A stretch of DNA of 64,000 nucleotides from Eledone cirrhosa (taxonomy: Eukaryota). The position numbers were made by a program, and so were the translations under genes. The stretch's first letter is position 1, and each line of letters starts with the position of its first letter. This document shows positions 6,290-60,166 of this stretch, piece by piece. The stretch is from positions 1-64,000 of the forward strand of contig CAXHJY010001252.1 of assembly GCA_964016885.1 (NCBI GenBank), given 5' to 3'. The notes beneath the pieces are model-generated. The model had not been told where the DNA came from, made no database searches, and saw nothing but the letters and a program-made list of their open reading frames with translations.

Positions 6290-6733
6290 AAGATATGATG
6301 CCTATTCACATGCGTTTGCGTGTGTGTATAGTGTTTTGTTTGCAAACAAAATACTATACACACACGCAAACGCATGCGCAAAGAAGACAAAATAAAATAA
6401 ACAAACAAGCAAATCAATAAATAAATATATAGACAGACTGAATAAAAATGGCGTAGACATACAATACAACAGGAGGAAAAGATAGCACCACTGACGATGT
6501 TGCAGATGTGGACGAAAGATTTATGATAAACTATATATATGTGTTTGTGTCTATATTGTATCTGTATTATTTTTGACCGTCGGTCAGTCAATGGCAACAT
6601 TGAGGACCGAGTAAGTTAGATTACCGATATAAAAGACACAGAAGCGAGAAGCGAAAACCAACCAAACAGTGAGTGTGTTCTGTTATTAATTCTGGCAATA
6701 TTACACAAATATGACCCTCCCCAAGTATAACTA
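6290..6733 (+). mobile_element. Non-coding HHR-bearing repeat family H2
   Basis: Tail ...atatgaccctccccaagtataac(TA)n is shared with 10900-11342, 27368-27487 and 48848-49112. Confidence 0.8.
6482..6534 (+). ncRNA. Hammerhead-like motif (family H2, diverged)
   Basis: atagcacca-CTGACGA-tgttgcagatgtggac-GAAA-gat-TTA-tgataaactat. Stems I and III are weak. Confidence 0.55.
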
Positions 6734-11691: not shown

Positions 11692-11766
11692 TAAATGGAA
11701 AAGAATGAAACAAAATTTAATTTCTCACTCTTAGTACGGCTGATACTTAAATGTAAGTTTGTATAC

Positions 11767-11803
<37 letters not shown>

Positions 11804-11960
11804 CGTACAGTAGCATGTATATATATGCATACATACACACATATATATATATGTATGTATGGGTTTACCGAACATTTATTATAATAAATGTTCGGTATAA
11901 TAAATGTTCGGTAAACTCGTACGTACATATATATATGTGTGCATGTATGTATATATGTAC
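11692..11960. mobile_element. Family H4 fragment folded back at its internal ccgaacatt/aatgttcgg hairpin
   Basis: Matches 24407-24610, then inverts at 11865-11917. Confidence 0.8.
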
Positions 11961-24394: not shown

Positions 24395-24693
24395 TGATAT
24401 ATATGTATGGAAAAGAATGAAACGAAATTTCATTTCTCACTCTTAGATTTCTCACTCTTAGTACGGCTGATACTTAAATATAAGTATGTATACGTCCATA
24501 CATATATGTATACAGACGTACAGTAGTATGTATATATATATATATACATACAAGCACATATATATATATATGTACGTATGGGGTTACCGAACATTTATTA
24601 TAATGTTCGGTTTGTTTGTCAACAAACAGCCCGAATTACGCCGTACAGTGTTCGGCAACCATCGTGGCCTTTTTGTTCAACACTGACACAGGA

Positions 24694-24736
24694 ACGATGT
24701 ACCAGTTTCAAGCTTATTAGCTATCGTCAGCATCGT
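24694..24736 (-). ncRNA. Minimal type-I hammerhead ribozyme (family H4)
   Basis: acgatg-CTGACGA-t agct aata agct t-GAA-ac tg gt-A-catcgt. Confidence 0.9.
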
Positions 24737-25125
24737 ATACCTTCCTGTCAGATGATTGAACGTTTGAAAGTATATACTTTCCTTATGCATATTAACGGCT
24801 GAGCAGCCTAATTTGCATATCGAGTGAGTTATTCGCCGGGCGTACCGAAAACGATAAATGGAAAAGAATGAAACGAAATTTCATTTCTCACTCTTAGTAC
24901 GGCTGATACTTAAATGTAAGTATGTATACTTACATACATATATGTATACAGACACACAGTAGTATGTATATATATACATACATGCACACATATATATATG
25001 TACGTATGGGTTACCGAACATTTATTATAATAACTCACTCGATATGCAAATTAGGCTGCTCAGCCGTTAATATGCATAAGGAAAGTATATACTTTCAAAC
25101 GTTCAATCATCTGACAAGAAGGTAT

Positions 25126-25168
25126 ACAATGCTGACGATAGCTAATAAGCTTGAAACTAGTACATCGT
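25126..25168 (+). ncRNA. Minimal type-I hammerhead ribozyme (family H4)
   Basis: acaatg-CTGACGA-t agct aata agct t-GAA-ac ta gt-A-catcgt. Confidence 0.85.
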
Positions 25169-25456
25169 TCCTGTGTCAGTGTTGAACAAAAAGGCGACGA
25201 TGGTTGCCGAACACTGTACGGCGTAATTCGGGCGGTTTGTTTACAAACCGAACATTATAATAAATGTTCGGTAAACCCATACGTACATATGTGTGTGCAT
25301 GTATGTATATAATATACATACTACTGTACGTCTGTATACATATATGTATGTACGTATACATACTGATATATATGTATATGTGTTTATAATCAACGTTGAT
25401 ATTTTTTCTTTGTCAGAAATGAACAATCAAAAAGTCATAAATTTACTATTTCTTCA

Positions 25457-30228: not shown

Positions 30229-30397
30229 TATAATATATATATATATAATATATATATATATAATATATATAATATATATATATATAATATATATATATAT
30301 AATATATATATATAATATATATATATAATATATATATATATAATATATATATATAAATAATATATATATATAATATATATATATATAATAAATTGAA

Positions 30398-30506
30398 ACA
30401 AAATGAAAACGAAATTTCATTTCTCACTCTTAGTATGGCACTTACTTAAATGTAAGTATGCATGTATACGTACATACATATATGTATACAGACGTACAGT
30501 AGCATG

Positions 30507-30554
<48 letters not shown>

Positions 30555-30701
30555 TACATATGCATACAGGTACACATACATATATGCACGTATCAGTTTA
30601 GCGGCGCTAACGTCGCTTTGTTCGTTTGTAAACAAACTGAACAGCCTGAATTTATGCCATACGGTGTTAAGGCAACCACGTCACCTTTTTGTTCAACACT
30701 G
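30398..30701. mobile_element. Family H4 fragment truncated just short of the HHR
   Basis: Matches the reverse complement of 50685-51000 and ends at ttcaacactga. Confidence 0.85.
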
Positions 30702-30702
30702 A

Positions 30703-32825: not shown

Positions 32826-34162
32826 GTAGGAGGTGAGTTTTATTGTAGTACAATAAAGCAATGCAGATATCGGATAAGAAGCACTCTACAGTTTGTAGGA
32901 CTGGAGTATACATAATATAAGATGTACAGATTTGTTTTCTATCTGCCTGCATAAATTCCATAGGACTTTTCACAAAGCATACAGTTAATATTCAATTCTT
33001 TATCAATTCAGAATCTTTTCTCAAAGGCACATATACATACACCTCTTTAAAATATACCCATCTTCCTACCTTTCTTTAAAGGGCATTATACACTCTATAA
33101 TACTTGTTTACTCATTCCCCTCACTCTATCTTCACCTTGTAAAATCCTTCATAACATATACATTTGTTTTTTTGACGTTAGAATATTCATCCGCAATCAT
33201 TATTATTTTTTCTCTCTATCATAAATCTTTTTAATCTCAATTTCATCCTTAATTTATTATTTTTTTCTCCCCCATCAACGAACTCATTCTTAATACATAT
33301 TAACTCTTTATTCGCATATATTATCAATTCCTTCAATATACAAACTTTAACTTCACATTATTTTTCTCAAATCCTTCTACACACAAACCTTAATAATTTT
33401 TCTCTTCGTTAATTTTGAAATTGCCACAATACTTATCAACATACACTTTTTTTGACGTTAGAATATTCATCTACAATTATTATTTTTTCTCTCTATCTTC
33501 ATACATAAATTCCCTTCGTTAATTTTCAAATTCCTTTAATTTATACATTATCTTCCAACGGTTCTCAACCTCTCTATGTAAAACAATATATCTTTTTCTC
33601 AGTTATAAAAACTTTCTCTTTCTCTCTATCACCCATCTCTCCCTCTCCACCTTCACTCTCATCTCCTCCCCCTTTTTTCATCTTTTTCACCCCCCCCTCC
33701 CTAAATAAAATATGTTTCCTCGCACATATCCTCCCTACGTTAATTTTCAAATTTATTTTATTTATACATTATCTTCCAACGGTTTTCAACCTCTCTATGT
33801 AAAACAATATATCTCCTCTCAGTTATAAAAACTATCTCTTTCTCTCTATCACCCATCTCTCCCTCTCATCTCCTCCCCTTTTTCATCCTTTCCACCCCCC
33901 CTCTCATCTCCTCCCCTTTTTCATCCTTTCCAACCCCCTCTCTAAATAAAATATTTTTCCCAATATCACACATCAATCTAAAACCACTTTTCATATGTTG
34001 ATTTAAAACTGCACTATCCACAAGTGTTTTTTAGCCTTCATATCATGTTCTCCTGTTTTATCTGATGAAAACACAAATATTATTGCATGATGATGTTTGT
34101 TTTTGAAATGCGCATAATAAAATACATGGAACTCCTTTAACCATCTTTTGATCTTATATTAT
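32824..34162 (+). mobile_element. Family H8 pLTR-like element with inverted tail at its 5' end
   Basis: 32824-32922 is the reverse complement of 59157-59256. Pyrimidine-rich body with internal duplications, and an HHR near the 3' end. Confidence 0.75.
34055..34123 (+). ncRNA. Type-I hammerhead ribozyme with long stem II (family H8)
   Basis: gttttat-CTGATGA-aaacacaaatattattgcatgatgatgtttgttttt-GAA-at gcgc at-A-ataaaat. Confidence 0.88.
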
Positions 34163-42767: not shown

Positions 42768-43221
42768 CTTTTGAATGTCACGGACATTTCAACGCATTAA
42801 AGATAATATGTCTAACTCCAGTGCGTCAATAACTTGTGGTAGTTATTGGGGTGGGGGGAGGGGGAGGAGAAAAAATGAAACAGAATGGGAAAAAATGATA
42901 TATATATATATATATATAGTGATAGAACACTGGAAGGTAATATCCGTAGTGGTAGAGCACTCAGTCCATGGGACGGGTTAGGTAGAAGTGGTCACACAAC
43001 AGTTAGTTCACCATACCGAGAACAATTGTTTCACCATAGCGGATCCTCAGCTCGTAATGGACATGGTTATACGGAACAGGAAGGACAACCGTACGAACGC
43101 GCATGCGCAGAAACCGGTCACTTCAGACAGGCAATATTAAAATGCGTGTTAAAGGTGTAAGAGAGATAACTGCGAAAGTCCGAAAAGTTTCTAGTTGATA
43201 AGAAAATTATGATGTTGTAAT

Positions 43222-43988
43222 TCAATCCGAAGCTTTGTAGTTATGCAAGAGGTGTTTTGAGACGTGTGGACAACGTGTGAAGAATTCATTTCTCGTGTTT
43301 AGGCAATCACTATTGCATAATCTCTTTAGAATATTTATTCGTTCATCAATATATAGTCCACTCGACGGACTTCCCCTTGCGGATGGCTTGGACTTAGTGA
43401 TGCCTTTCCATTGAATGGAATAGTCTATACTTGAGTCCTTGAGAGACCATACGTGGCTCGCGAGTTTCGTGGATGAACGTCTGTCCGGGTACCTAAAGGT
43501 CGACTGGTGGTTCAGTAAACATTCCTTAAATCGGGCCTCCGCCATATCCAAATGGTGGTTGATTAGTTCGGTTGGAAGTGACCAAAGCTTCATAAATTAC
43601 AGCGGGTGTGTTGCATTGCTGTTGAAGGGGACAAGCTTCGGGCTTACGGCAAGAGCACCCTAGTGGGGTGTTGCTCCTAGGGCTGCTGGTGATGTGGGCC
43701 TTCATGTTCTTAGCGCAGGAGTATCCTAGTTTTACTTTGTGTCGGTTAAAGATGGAGCGGTATTTATGACCTATGAGAAAGTGTCTATCTAAGAGGGCTA
43801 GAAATTGTTTGCCTACATTGGTTTTAACGTTGAGTGAGAAGAGAGGAGAGAACCAGATAGTTTGTCTATTGTTATGATTTCTTTTCTTATTGTTGTTGTT
43901 GTTAGTGGGAGAGTAAGTGATAGGTATCGAGAAGCCGCTGTTAGCTAACGCCGTGTTATAGTAGGGTGCCGCACTGTCAAAGATAGCC
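43222..43988 (-). pseudogene. Penelope-like ORF remnant (thumb, linker, GIY-YIG C-terminus)
   Basis: APYYNTALANSGF..TIWFSPLFSLNVKTNVGKQFLALLDRHF..IFNRHKVKLGYSC and FKECLLNHQSTF..STKLASHVWSLK..LNTRNEFFTRCPH. Confidence 0.88.
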
Positions 43989-44189
43989 TAATAGGAAAAT
44001 GTTCAAGACCACGACGGCAGAGCTCGAGCCGTTTCGACAGCTATTTCTGGATTCCAGAAATAGCCGTCGAAACGGCTCGAGCTCTGCCGTCGGGGTCTTG
44101 AACATTTTCCTATTACCCATTCTACTACCCTAAGTATTGAGTACTCTGGTGCGTTATGGTCCACCTGCTTCCTTACCACACTTCTTTCG

Positions 44190-44192
<3 letters not shown>
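43989..44192 (+). mobile_element. Family H5 hairpin element
   Basis: Palindrome 43989-44115 with axis 44052, plus tail. Abuts the PLE ORF remnant. Confidence 0.9.
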
Positions 44193-44237
<45 letters not shown>

Positions 44238-44238
<1 letters not shown>

Positions 44239-45530
44239 TACAAAAGAAACGGAAACAACAAAACAAAACATCCGCAGGGCCATACGGACGGAGGGACTTG
44301 ACATACATTTGGCCCACACAGGACCTTCGCTGCGAAGATGCCTCTCCAACAAACCCGACGAGTCAGGTGGGACGTGTTCCCTCAGCAACTGCCCGATACG
44401 GGGGGTAGATTGCCTACGCACCTATGTCGTATATAAGATTCAATGCGATAAATGTAACAAGTTTTACATAGGTAGCACCATCCGACCCCTACATGTTCGT
44501 ATCAAGGAACATATCAACACCAACGCATCTTCCTTCCGTAAACACATCCTTAAATGCGGAAACCCACAGGGTAGACCCTTGGTCACAGTCCTAGCGACTG
44601 AACGCAGCATCGGATCCTTAAGGATAAAGGAAGCACTTGTTATTAAGAACCTCAGACCCCCACTTAACAACCGGGCTGACATGGCTAACTTAACCATAGT
44701 GACTATTCACAGCCCTTACGGCCTGCTTTTTTCACACACACGCACGTATATGCATACCCATACGCATACACACACACATCTATATTTATACACGCACACA
44801 TGTTTTTACAACCTACCACCTTTCACACCCTTTGATTTCCAGCTTCTACAGCCCACTATCTTTCACACACACACGCACTCACACATATACACACACAGTT
44901 ACACACACATGTATACCCATACGCTTACACACACACATCTATATTTATACACGCACACATGTTTTACAACCTACCACCTTTCACACCCTTTGATTTCCAG
45001 CTTCTACAGCCCACTATCTTTCACACACACACACACTCACATATATACACACTTACACATATACACACACAGTTACACACACATATATATTTACACACAC
45101 ATATCTTACGGCTTTCACACGCTAGCGCACCCTCTTGATTTAACCCATTTGGTCAGTAGCTTTTGCCACAGCCTATCACGCGCACGCGCATTCTTTCCCT
45201 CATTTAAATTTTAAATAATTTTTTTTTCTCCCCATAACGGCATTCCTGTTTTAACGACATCACAACTTTCTCCGCTTAGCCTGTTCCCCCCCTTTTGGAA
45301 CTTTCCCCCGTTGATGGGCGTGAGCCCGAAATATTGGGATTAAATCTCCACTACGGTAACCCTTCTACCTTTGTTTTGTTTTCATCTTTGTCTCTCTCAA
45401 TTTTCACTTTATCCTATTCTCCTATCTATCATTCACTTCCTACCTCGAGATTTCCCTCTGCATTGTTGTGGCTTTCTAAACTACGTATTTTACACATTTC
45501 ACAATGCTTCAAGCAAACTTTAACACCCTC

Positions 45531-49400: not shown

Positions 49401-49532
49401 ACATATATATATACATATATACATATATACATATATTTATATATACATATATACATATATTTATATATACATATATACATATATATATATACATATATAA
49501 ATATATGTATATATATATATACATATATATAC

Positions 49533-49567
<35 letters not shown>

Positions 49568-49719
49568 CATATATATACATATATACATATATATACATAT
49601 ATATATATACATATATATATGTATATATATATACATACATATATATATATATACATATATATATATGTAAGTATGTATGTATACGTACATACATATATGT
49701 ATACAGACGTACAGTAGCA

Positions 49720-49761
<42 letters not shown>

Positions 49762-49931
49762 TATACACATATGCATACAGGTACACATACATATATGCAT
49801 GCATCAGTTTAGCCGACGTTTATTATAACGCCTGCTTTGTTCGTTTGTTTGTCAACAAATCGAACAGCCTGAATTTATGCCATACGGTGTTAAGGCAACC
49901 ACGTCACCTTTTTGTTCAACACTGACACAGG

Positions 49932-49976
49932 AACGATGTACTAGTTTCAAGCTTGTTAGCCATCATCAGCACCGTT
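49932..49976 (-). ncRNA. Minimal type-I hammerhead ribozyme (family H4)
   Basis: aacggtg-CTGATGA-t ggct aaca agct t-GAA-ac ta gt-A-catcgtt. Confidence 0.88.
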
Positions 49977-50111
49977 TACCCATCTGCCAGATAGTTGAAC
50001 GGTATGCCTGACCGATTTAACTCACTCAATATGCAAATTAGGCTGCTCAGCCGTTAATTTTCATAAGGAAAGTATATACTTTCGAACGTTCAACTATCTG
50101 GCAGATGGGTA

Positions 50112-50156
50112 AACGGTGCTGATGATAGCTAACAAGCTTGAAACTAGTACATCGTT
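50112..50156 (+). ncRNA. Minimal type-I hammerhead ribozyme (family H4), predicted cut after 50149
   Basis: aacggtg-CTGATGA-t agct aaca agct t-GAA-ac ta gt-A-catcgtt. Confidence 0.9.
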
Positions 50157-50326
50157 CCTGTGTCAGTGTTGAACAAAAAGGTGACGTGGTTGCCTTAACA
50201 CCGTATGGCATAAATTCAGGCTGTTCGATTTGTTGACAAACAAACGAACAAAGCAGGCGTTATAATAAACGTCGGCTAAACTGATGCGTGCATATATGTA
50301 TGTGTACCTGTATGCATATGTGTATA

Positions 50327-50392
<66 letters not shown>

Positions 50393-50633
50393 TATGCATG
50401 CTACTGTACGTCTGTATACATATATGTATGTACGTATACATACATACTTACATTTAAGTAAGTGCCATACTAAGAATGAGAAATGAAATTTCGTTTTCAT
50501 TTTTTTTCAGCTTATCGTTTTCGGTATGCCTGACCGATTTAACTCACTCAATATGCAAATTAGGCTGCTCAGCCGTTAATTTTCATAAGGAAAGTATATA
50601 CTTTCGAACGTTCAACTATCTGGCAGATGGGTA

Positions 50634-50678
50634 AACGGTGCTGATGATAGCTAACAAGCTTGAAACTAGTACATCGTT
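50634..50678 (+). ncRNA. Minimal type-I hammerhead ribozyme (family H4), predicted cut after 50671
   Basis: Identical to 50112-50156. Confidence 0.9.
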
Positions 50679-50848
50679 CCTGTGTCAGTGTTGAACAAAA
50701 AGGTGACGTGGTTGCCTTAACACCGTATGGCATAAATTCAGGCTGTTCGATTTGTTGACAAACAAACGAACAAAGCAGGCGTTATAATAAACGTCGGCTA
50801 AACTGACGCGTGCATATATGTATGTGTACCTGTATGCATATGTGTATA

Positions 50849-50900
<52 letters not shown>

Positions 50901-51013
50901 TGCTACTGTACGTCTGTATAGATATATGTATGTACGTATACATACATACTTACATTTAAGTAAGTGCCATACTAAGAGTGAGAAATGAAATTTCGTTTTC
51001 ATTTTTTTTTCAA

Positions 51014-51015
<2 letters not shown>

Positions 51016-51055
<40 letters not shown>

Positions 51056-51158
51056 TATATACATATATATACATACATATATATATACATACATATATAT
51101 ATACATATATATATATACATATATATACATATATATATATACATATATATATATACAC

Positions 51159-51231
<73 letters not shown>

Positions 51232-51533
51232 CATATACATATATATATATACATATATATATATATACATATATATATATACATATATATATACATATAC
51301 ATATATATATATACATATATATATATACATATATATACATACATATATATGCATATATATACATACATATATATATAGATATACATATATTTATATATAT
51401 ACATATATATATATACATATATATACATACATATATATATATATATACATATACATATATTTATATATACATATACATATATATACATATATATATATGT
51501 ATATATATATATTGTTATACATACATATATATA

Positions 51534-51579
<46 letters not shown>

Positions 51580-51621
51580 CATATACATATATATATATAT
51601 ATATACATATATATGTATACA

Positions 51622-51673
<52 letters not shown>

Positions 51674-51687
51674 AATATATGTATATG

Positions 51688-51760
<73 letters not shown>

Positions 51761-52845
51761 GTATACATATATATATATATACGTATACATATATATATAT
51801 ATATGTATATATATTCACACGTGACGTGCTGCATACATTACAAAGCCCATCTTCAATTCAGGACTATTATTACCGTTGTTGTTGTTGTTGTTGTTGTTGT
51901 TGTCATCACACGTTTAACATGTCAACTGGAAATGCCAGCCAGCACCAGGCGGTCTAATGATGACAGAACACTTATCGATGGTAGTGGAATCAATAGCCTC
52001 CACCACCATCACCACCATCACACCACCACCATCACACCAGGATAATCATACCACACACACCACCACCATCACCACCACCACCAACACCACACACACCACC
52101 ACCATCACCACCACAGACCACCACCATCACCACCACCACCATCACACCACCACCATCACCACCACCACCACCACCACCACCACCACCACACACACCACCA
52201 CCATCACACCACCGCCACCACCACCACACCACCACCAACACCAACAACACACCACCACCACCACCACCATCACCACCACATCACCACCACCACCATCACC
52301 ACCACCACCATCACACCACCAACATCACCATCACCACCAACACCACCACCACCACCACCACCATCACACCACCATAATCACACCACCACCACCACCATCA
52401 CAACCACCACCATCACCACCACCATCATCACACCACCACCATCACCACCACCATCATCACACCACCACCACCACCACCATCACACCACCACCACCACCAT
52501 CACCATCACCAACATCACCATCACCACCACACCACCACCACCACCACACCACCATCACACCACCACCACCACCACCACCATCACACCACTACCGCCACCA
52601 CAACCACCACCACACCACCATCACACCACCACCATCATCACACCACCACCACCACCATCACCACCACCAACATCACCACCACCACATCACCACCACCACC
52701 ACCACCTTCCACTACAGTTGTCATCATCACCATCATTATCATCATCACCATCGTCATCGAAACCACCACCACCACCACCACCACCACCATCCCCACCATC
52801 ACCACCACCACCACCCCACCACCACTCATCATCATCATCATCATT
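51016..52845. repeat. (TA/CATA)n tract followed by a (CAC/CAT)n tract
   Basis: Directly visible. Confidence 0.95.

Positions 52846-58527: not shown

Positions 58528-60166
<1,639 letters not shown>

Follow-up and report, generated by a model that had tools for sequence, protein, structure and literature searches.

Does a pair of hammerhead motifs lying head to tail between (TA)n microsatellites of the Eledone cirrhosa genome mark an element that moves through RNA and, if so, which enzyme moves it and from which template? The locus occupies positions 49403–51814 of the stretch analysed here (‘the window’, 64,000 nucleotides of contig CAXHJY010001252.1). A sequence-only reading had proposed that it is a retrozyme-like array releasing a 522-nt non-coding monomer, possibly as a circle.

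Circular RNAs were demonstrated in 2020 for coral, mussel, and axolotl retrozymes (PMC7229834), and a Penelope origin of retrozymes was argued in 2026 (10.64898/2026.07.22.740005). A life cycle combining RNA circles with Penelope-like elements has been proposed earlier (PMC7229834; 10.64898/2026.07.22.740005; PMC4209133), with mobilisation still treated as a hypothesis. Here, we describe the locus and its family, and we consider it rather probable that this non-coding hammerhead repeat is moved in trans by a Penelope-like reverse transcriptase (RT)/GIY-YIG protein, probably from circular RNA.

Locus anatomy and the hammerhead motif

The insertion (49665–51016) comprises an inverted arm followed by two head-to-tail units, and both of its outer ends lie inside (TA)n (Table 1). 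In pairwise alignment, the units start at 50000 and 50522, and the segment 50000–50299 recurs at 50522 (spacing 522) with one difference within the first 291 nt. The proposed unit length of 522 nt holds for unit 1 but is not general: unit 2, whose (TA)n tract is 20 nt shorter, extends only to unit position 516, and periods at other loci vary from ~420 to 520. The inverted partial third copy is present, spans 49665–50001 (unit positions 88–454), and overlaps unit 1 by 2 nt; the earlier description requires correction in that this arm carries a complete hammerhead of its own (49922–49990, minus strand), in which a single A>G yields a G.U pair in stem II. No meaningful ORF was found, as had been claimed: seven ATG-started frames of at least 26 aa occur at the locus, the longest of 92 aa, and five of them are wholly or partly microsatellite translations. 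The genome measures 3.0 Gb, and its microsatellite load is presumably like that of octopus genomes.

Table 1. Coordinates of features at the locus (window positions)
Feature	Position	Strand	Basis
Left target microsatellite, (TA)n type	49403–49664	.	sequence
Inverted 5'-truncated arm, unit positions 88–454, short 3' end (site A) in (TA)n	49665–50001	-	
Hammerhead 3, stem II with one A>G, cut predicted between 49939 and 49938	49922–49990	-	
Unit 1, 522 nt	50000–50521	+	alignment
Palindromic TATA-like element, ~25–30 nt upstream of hammerhead 5' edge; possible promoter	50068–50083	.	
Type I hammerhead 1, extended stem I, predicted cut after 50149	50098–50166	+	
Hammerhead 1 parts: CUGAUGA; GAAA; palindromic stem III	50119; 50140; 50143–50148	+	
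Predicted cut-to-cut RNA monomer, 522 nt, candidate circle	50150–50671	+	
Internal (TA)n tract, variable length, tip of long predicted hairpin	50323–50395	+	
‘Tail’ between 3' end sites A (~50453) and B (~50515), putative RT starts	50453–50515	+	
Unit 2, long 3' end (site B) in (TA)n	50522–51016	+	
Type I hammerhead 2, identical to 1, core 50641, predicted cut after 50671	50620–50688	+	
Right target microsatellite, (TA)n type	51016–51814	.	sequence

By alignment, the inverted arm is able to pair with 50087–50446, so hammerhead 1 would be masked in a transcript starting upstream, and release of the 522-nt monomer would need a transcription start inside unit 1. The central part of the TATA-like palindrome at 50068–50083 is retained in older subfamilies; that it serves as a promoter is a guess from its sequence.

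Hammerheads 1 and 2 have identical cores (CUGAUGA, GAAA, ACUAGU, and a GUA triplet), and the alignment agrees with the cuts predicted for them after 50149 and 50671, 522 nt apart. They combine CUGANGA, GAAA, an NUH triplet, and stems I–III in the type I arrangement, with stem I closing on the bases that follow the GUA triplet and extended (50098–50166) with an internal loop. The base of stem II is U.U instead of the canonical G10.1-C11.1 pair; the same U.U is found at the helix II base of axolotl HHR_Amex2, which cleaves (PMC7229834). Rfam hammerhead models returned no match at gathering score for the locus; weak Hammerhead_HH9 matches (18.5, 18.5, and 16.8 bits; E 0.13–0.45; cut-off 52) fall exactly at the three motifs. 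Rfam miRNA-type matches were rejected as hairpin and microsatellite artefacts.

Stem III had been read as a palindrome closed by a 2-nt loop, through which two adjacent copies could pair. The palindrome and the dimer-type pairing stand, as one stem III pair is possible in the monomer and six are possible in the dimer (predicted duplex energy -4.8 kcal/mol), an arrangement described for metazoan canonical hammerheads (PMC4209133) and for axolotl retrozymes (PMC7229834). The 2-nt loop does not, being sterically unlikely, and a single A-U pair closing a palindromic tetraloop is a better picture of the monomer. Folding predictions for the monomer pair the stem III palindrome with CUG of the core, giving an inactive state, and the non-(TA) part of the unit has a predicted folding z of -6.7 against 40 shuffles. 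Self-cleavage is a prediction here; of nine Xenopus retrozyme dimers, only one was cleaved in vitro (10.64898/2026.07.22.740005).

Sequence comparison shows that the motif is under selection, being more conserved than the rest of the unit and having compensatory changes in stem I. Between old and young subfamilies, 3 of 63 sites have changed across unit positions 120–182 (the core plus 32 nt past the cut) against 72 of 352 elsewhere (Fisher p=0.002), and the two core changes between them affect N7 and loop 2. Among 292 motifs, preselected for intact CUGANGA/GAAA, the cleavage triplet is GUA in 267 and GUU in 11, and one stem I pair appears as G.U in 170, A-U in 65, and U.G in 50, i.e. has changed on both sides. 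Across 12 distinct sequences, 96.7% of cells are paired and two pairs have changed on both sides; covariation is 0.151 versus 0.095 after shuffling, a control that is inflated by sequence kinship.

A retrozyme family with two fixed 3' ends

The exact 41-nt core has 10,155 copies in the genome and its reversed control has none, so the motif is not due to chance; a degenerate 30-nt core has 25,010 copies. The proposal of a retrozyme-type non-coding family is thereby upheld, and the qualifier ‘young’ is true of the subfamily represented at the locus but not of its relatives, as identity to the window unit descends from 100% to ~80% in successive subfamilies. Altogether, 159 loci from five samples were examined: 50 loci among the first 100 exact matches (largest contig), the 29 best matches of an older window copy, 38 loci from matches to the stretch downstream of the cut or from nested searches together with two just beyond, two long arrays, and 38 loci from degenerate-core matches. 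At least two tandem motifs occur in 26 of 90 loci, the remaining 64 having at most one motif per arm; at the window locus, two consecutive units each contain a complete type I hammerhead. Having no coding capacity and a dispersed high copy number, the family is, by the sequence-level definition, an animal non-LTR retrozyme, a kind already known.

Other copies are present in the window. Those at 24447–25363 and 30388–30702 are older or partial, with cores 81–87% identical, and the former has two hammerheads on opposite strands; the copy at 11696–11817 consists of the tail only.

The family resembles animal non-LTR retrozymes in having non-coding units, a few hundred bp long and repeated in tandem, that each contain a type I hammerhead, in its thousands of copies, and in its coexistence with Penelope-like elements (PMC7229834; 10.64898/2026.07.22.740005), and it shares a weak palindromic helix III with axolotl HHR_Amex1 (PMC7229834). 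Its unit (~420–520 nt) exceeds the 150–450 bp of the retrozymes first described and falls within the range of 51–972 bp given more recently (10.64898/2026.07.22.740005). Further differences from animal retrozymes are the internal (TA)n hairpin of the unit and the finding of no terminal-repeat donor; its RNA circles are a prediction, whereas circles are documented for those animal retrozymes (PMC7229834). A literature search, outside which lay the supplements of PMC7229834, PMC4209133 (one file), and 10.64898/2026.07.22.740005, found no description of this repeat family, and a term search of the main text of an octopus repeat annotation returned no mention of ribozymes or retrozymes (PMC13282606).

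End typing covered 121 loci and 203 arms, with 86 arms ending at site A (about unit position 454), 87 at site B (about 516), and 30 left untyped; the two sites are ~60 nt apart, in (TA)n. Circularly permuted ends, which the sequence-only reading had suggested looking for, are thus replaced by 3' ends at two fixed sites, but fixed ends mark the RT start inside the RNA and therefore do not refute a circular template. The 71 head-to-head pairs consist of 47 A+B, one A+A, no B+B, and 23 that are not fully typed. Hence, 47 of 48 typed pairs are A+B, and the lone A+A call is a miscall, as its sequence shows a B end; a looser script for calling ends gave 39 A+B pairs and no like pairs. The window locus obeys the same rule (inverted arm A, direct arm B), and the claim that its partial-tandem and inverted layout is of the Penelope type is borne out by these pairs.

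The 5' ends, by contrast with the fixed 3' ends, are scattered among insertions. Arm lengths are uncorrelated within the 47 A+B pairs (A longer in 16, B longer in 21), and the two 5' ends lie within 20 nt of each other in 11. Uncorrelated arm lengths point to two independent priming events; a fold-back origin of the inverted arm was rejected as a general rule for the same reason.

The insertions thus have the marks of the Penelope type (fixed 3' ends, a one-end tail, scattered 5' truncation, an inverted arm, and an AT-rich microsatellite target) and not an LTR-internal-LTR layout; the borders of target-site duplications are not delimitable in (TA)n targets. A ‘tail at one end only’ is a signature of Penelope-like elements (PMC8557442; PMC3846280) and has been attributed to RT starting at two internal sites, where both strands of the target are cut and extended (PMC11167929). 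Penelope-like elements with a GIY-YIG endonuclease (Penelope/Poseidon, Neptune, and Naiad) likewise combine 5' truncation, partial tandems, an adjacent inverted 5'-truncated arm, and the one-end tail, insert into (TA)n, and carry a hammerhead that lies upstream of their RT starts (PMC8557442; PMC3846280; PMC11167929; PMC4209133). Differences from the Penelope-like elements of these accounts are the missing ORF, a tail of ~60 nt versus 30–40 nt, a canonical-type versus a minimal hammerhead, and long non-coding arrays. Conversely, the accessible text of the animal retrozyme studies (PMC7229834; 10.64898/2026.07.22.740005) leaves insertion ends unmapped, whereas those of the Eledone repeat are fixed Penelope-type A/B ends.

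Such ends also bear on whether the repeat might spread at the DNA level, as a satellite or a rolling-circle repeat (Helitron-like or from an extrachromosomal circle) with the hammerhead as a relic. This would account for the tandem organisation and the variable (TA)n lengths, but short dispersed insertions with 3' ends fixed at two sites, 5' ends that scatter, and arms paired strictly as A+B are marks of retrotransposition and, together with covariation of the RNA structure, make a DNA-level origin very improbable.

At one locus (L128:2124–3223), the ~60 nt preceding site A, without the rest of the unit, recur ~11 times in tandem with (TA)n behind each copy, which can be read as repeated priming or as local amplification. 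This array was excluded from the end counts.

Penelope-like families as candidate sources of the enzyme

At none of the 159 loci does the unit form the terminal repeat of an ORF, in agreement with the earlier expectation that the copies would not all be pLTRs attached to coding Penelope-like elements. Penelope-like ORF fragments are found near the repeat at 28 of the 159 loci, and all but two are separated from it by (TA)n beyond the repeat. No ORF with RT and GIY-YIG domains was found between terminal repeats of the family; the only joins are in mid-ORF (L044 and L047). The units themselves join head to tail without intervening coding sequence. The repeat is not an autonomous Penelope-like element.

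It might nonetheless be the pLTR of an undetected coding Penelope-like element, with the copies being 5'-truncated insertions of that element. The end anatomy would be the same (tail, inverted arm, and (TA)n target), and other families of this genome are built in exactly this way. We regard this as improbable given the count of 0 in 159 for an ORF adjoining in terminal-repeat position, albeit with room for a rare master copy beyond the sample, and given head-to-tail arrays of 13 or more units with no coding sequence between them. The proposals that the repeat is the terminal repeat of either of two Penelope-like families, P1 (window 43000–43990) or P2, were rejected, as the matches are only microsatellite or 16–20-nt matches at chance level. 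Also rejected were two ORF-to-repeat links suggested by distance (L246 and L238), in which (TA)n and other elements lie between independent insertions.

Mobilisation in trans by some Penelope-like protein is, in our judgement, very probable. P2 is a candidate, and only a candidate, for the specific enzyme. This young Penelope-like family has an intact open frame of 821 aa and many copies that are 99–100% identical, and its terminal repeat has a different hammerhead-like motif and short and long ends of its own. The 821-aa ORF was not recognised by Pfam; by eye, it has DGL in the RT, a Cys-rich linker, and a GIY-YIG-like C-terminus. From these motifs, P2 is probably of the Penelope/Neptune type. 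The reference for such a reading of the motifs is PMC8557442. Comparison of P2, terminal repeat included, with the retrozyme repeat revealed no sequence similarity.

A further parallel is MRC1 of Chlamys, a non-autonomous Penelope-type element with frequent multicopy head-to-tail insertions (PMC8557442). MRC1-type elements share 3' sequence with autonomous families; the Eledone repeat, unlike MRC1, has a hammerhead and no homology to its candidate partner P2 (PMC8557442 for MRC1).

Several joins connect the repeat to other families. The short end of P2 is directly joined to the long end of the repeat at L047, with no repeat remainder behind P2, and the short end of the repeat is directly joined to the long end of P2 at L044. 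Head-to-head joins to other families, long + short, occur at L038 and L059, and a further one, judged by eye, occurs at L077; at L135, a cross-family join is long + long, against the one-short-one-long rule. Such joins fit template switching in a shared complex. They could also be nested insertions with deletion, which is plausible because (TA)n tracts collect many independent insertions.

Many Penelope-type families of this genome seem to share the (TA)n target and to cluster there. The window contains, on its minus strand at 42922–43990, a 5'-truncated, broken element of family P1 (45,666 first-look candidates; best relatives 83–90% identical) with a hammerhead motif at 43050 that has a palindromic stem III. 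Head-to-head P2 terminal repeats with short and long ends and a hammerhead-like motif lie at 58831–59255 and at 34062. Family P4 is represented by head-to-head ends with a ~80-nt tail at 43990–44190 and 44237–44722, behind which lies a fragment of a GIY-YIG endonuclease (Pfam PF01541, E 4e-5). Hammerhead-like cores beside (TA)n at 6491 (+), 11141 (-), 49074 (-), 18630 (+), and 34429 (-) represent at least three further families. Outside the window, RT and endonuclease of a P2 ORF (L214:2670–5132) are connected by an asparagine-rich linker, and the P2 3' region of ~1.2 kb has internal repeats; N-rich inserts have been described for rotifer Penelope elements (PMC3846280).

Circle or uncut multimer as template

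Nested genome-wide counts indicate that copying does not end at the predicted cut. The stretch downstream of the cut has 14,958 copies, of which 13,326 (89%) retain the 10 nt up to the cut. A further 10 nt, across the cut, are retained in 12,542 of these 13,326 (94%, versus 89% for the neighbouring 10 nt), which argues that cDNA synthesis continued through the cut; on this ground, the linear monomer released by cutting was rejected as the usual template. Only 3 of 202 5' ends fall at unit positions 144–158, in a sample that was partly chosen for an intact motif and is biased accordingly. The template is, therefore, a circle or an uncut multimer.

If it is an uncut linear read-through multimer, the element and enzyme would be of the same Penelope type, template jumping or duplication at the DNA level would restore the arrays, and the hammerhead would have another role, such as turnover or processing of the 5' end. 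Copying through the cut site fits this equally well. Moreover, an anole element, the one Penelope-like element to have been assayed in vitro, was shown to insert without hammerhead cleavage, with hammerhead mutants inserting normally and uncut RNA being the main template (PMC11167929).

Variation among units also leans this way. Unit divergence is 0.007 within an arm, 0.006 across arms, and 0.035 on average between loci, but the nearest unit at another locus is, at 0.006, as close as units within an insertion, and many of the within-locus pairs come from one array. Only 11 variants are restricted to one insertion and found in all its units, against 155 private to a unit and nine that are partial. 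Having few insertion-wide variants, and equally near units elsewhere, the data do not prove a monomer bottleneck per insertion.

Against the uncut multimer stand the 64 of 90 loci with at most one motif per arm, from which linear copying alone would shrink arrays; the homogeneous arrays in each successive subfamily, some on both arms with the same period; and the retention of the motif under selection in an element without an ORF. The longest arrays have up to 13 or more units. In L219, the 11 units vary at a single site, and 9 of the 12 steps have a period of 479; in L080 and L220, both arms contain several units and share one period. Since arms in most insertions contain a single motif or none, and multi-unit arrays nevertheless reappear in successive subfamilies, some monomer-to-multimer step is needed, and rolling on a circle would be the simplest. 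All in all, we judge the uncut multimer to be a serious but somewhat unlikely alternative to circular RNA.

On the reading that we favour, a retrozyme RNA moved by a Penelope-like protein, arrays with at least two tandem hammerheads would be transcribed, and adjacent hammerheads are predicted to pair through the palindromic stem III and cut out a unit-length RNA. The monomer would then be ligated, and its predicted fold would sequester the catalytic core. A Penelope-like protein would nick both (TA)n strands and prime a cDNA at each of sites A and B. Both cDNAs would run past the cut site, each over anything from part of a unit to 11 units or more, probably by rolling on the circle. The two cDNAs would end up joined head to head at unrelated 5' ends, the structure that is seen in the genome.

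The most specific version of this scheme, with twin priming at two fixed sites on a closed ribozyme-made circle, rolling for at least 11 units, and P2 as the enzyme donor able to switch between its own RNA and that of the retrozyme, is put forward tentatively. The mechanism is weakened by the P2 terminal repeat having no similarity to the repeat, by the possibility of nested insertions, by the long + long join at L135, and by the U.U in stem II.

The family offers thousands of recent copies with readable ends, which record Penelope-type twin priming and cut-site read-through, and, with an intact candidate enzyme in the same genome, it makes the question of circle versus multimer directly testable. 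If the version with P2 as enzyme donor is true, these insertions would document the proposed retrozyme life cycle directly in genomic sequence, and both of its components could be used to reconstitute it.

Six sequence runs containing the stretch, from four organisms, were found, none of them typed as RNA; the four that were compared are contigs. A contig piece among them (run X6) starts at 50151 and was rejected as evidence of an RNA end, being contig only. Among the arrays, that of L080 carries the same C>T in hammerhead stem II in 3 of 17 units, which are non-adjacent and follow no periodicity.
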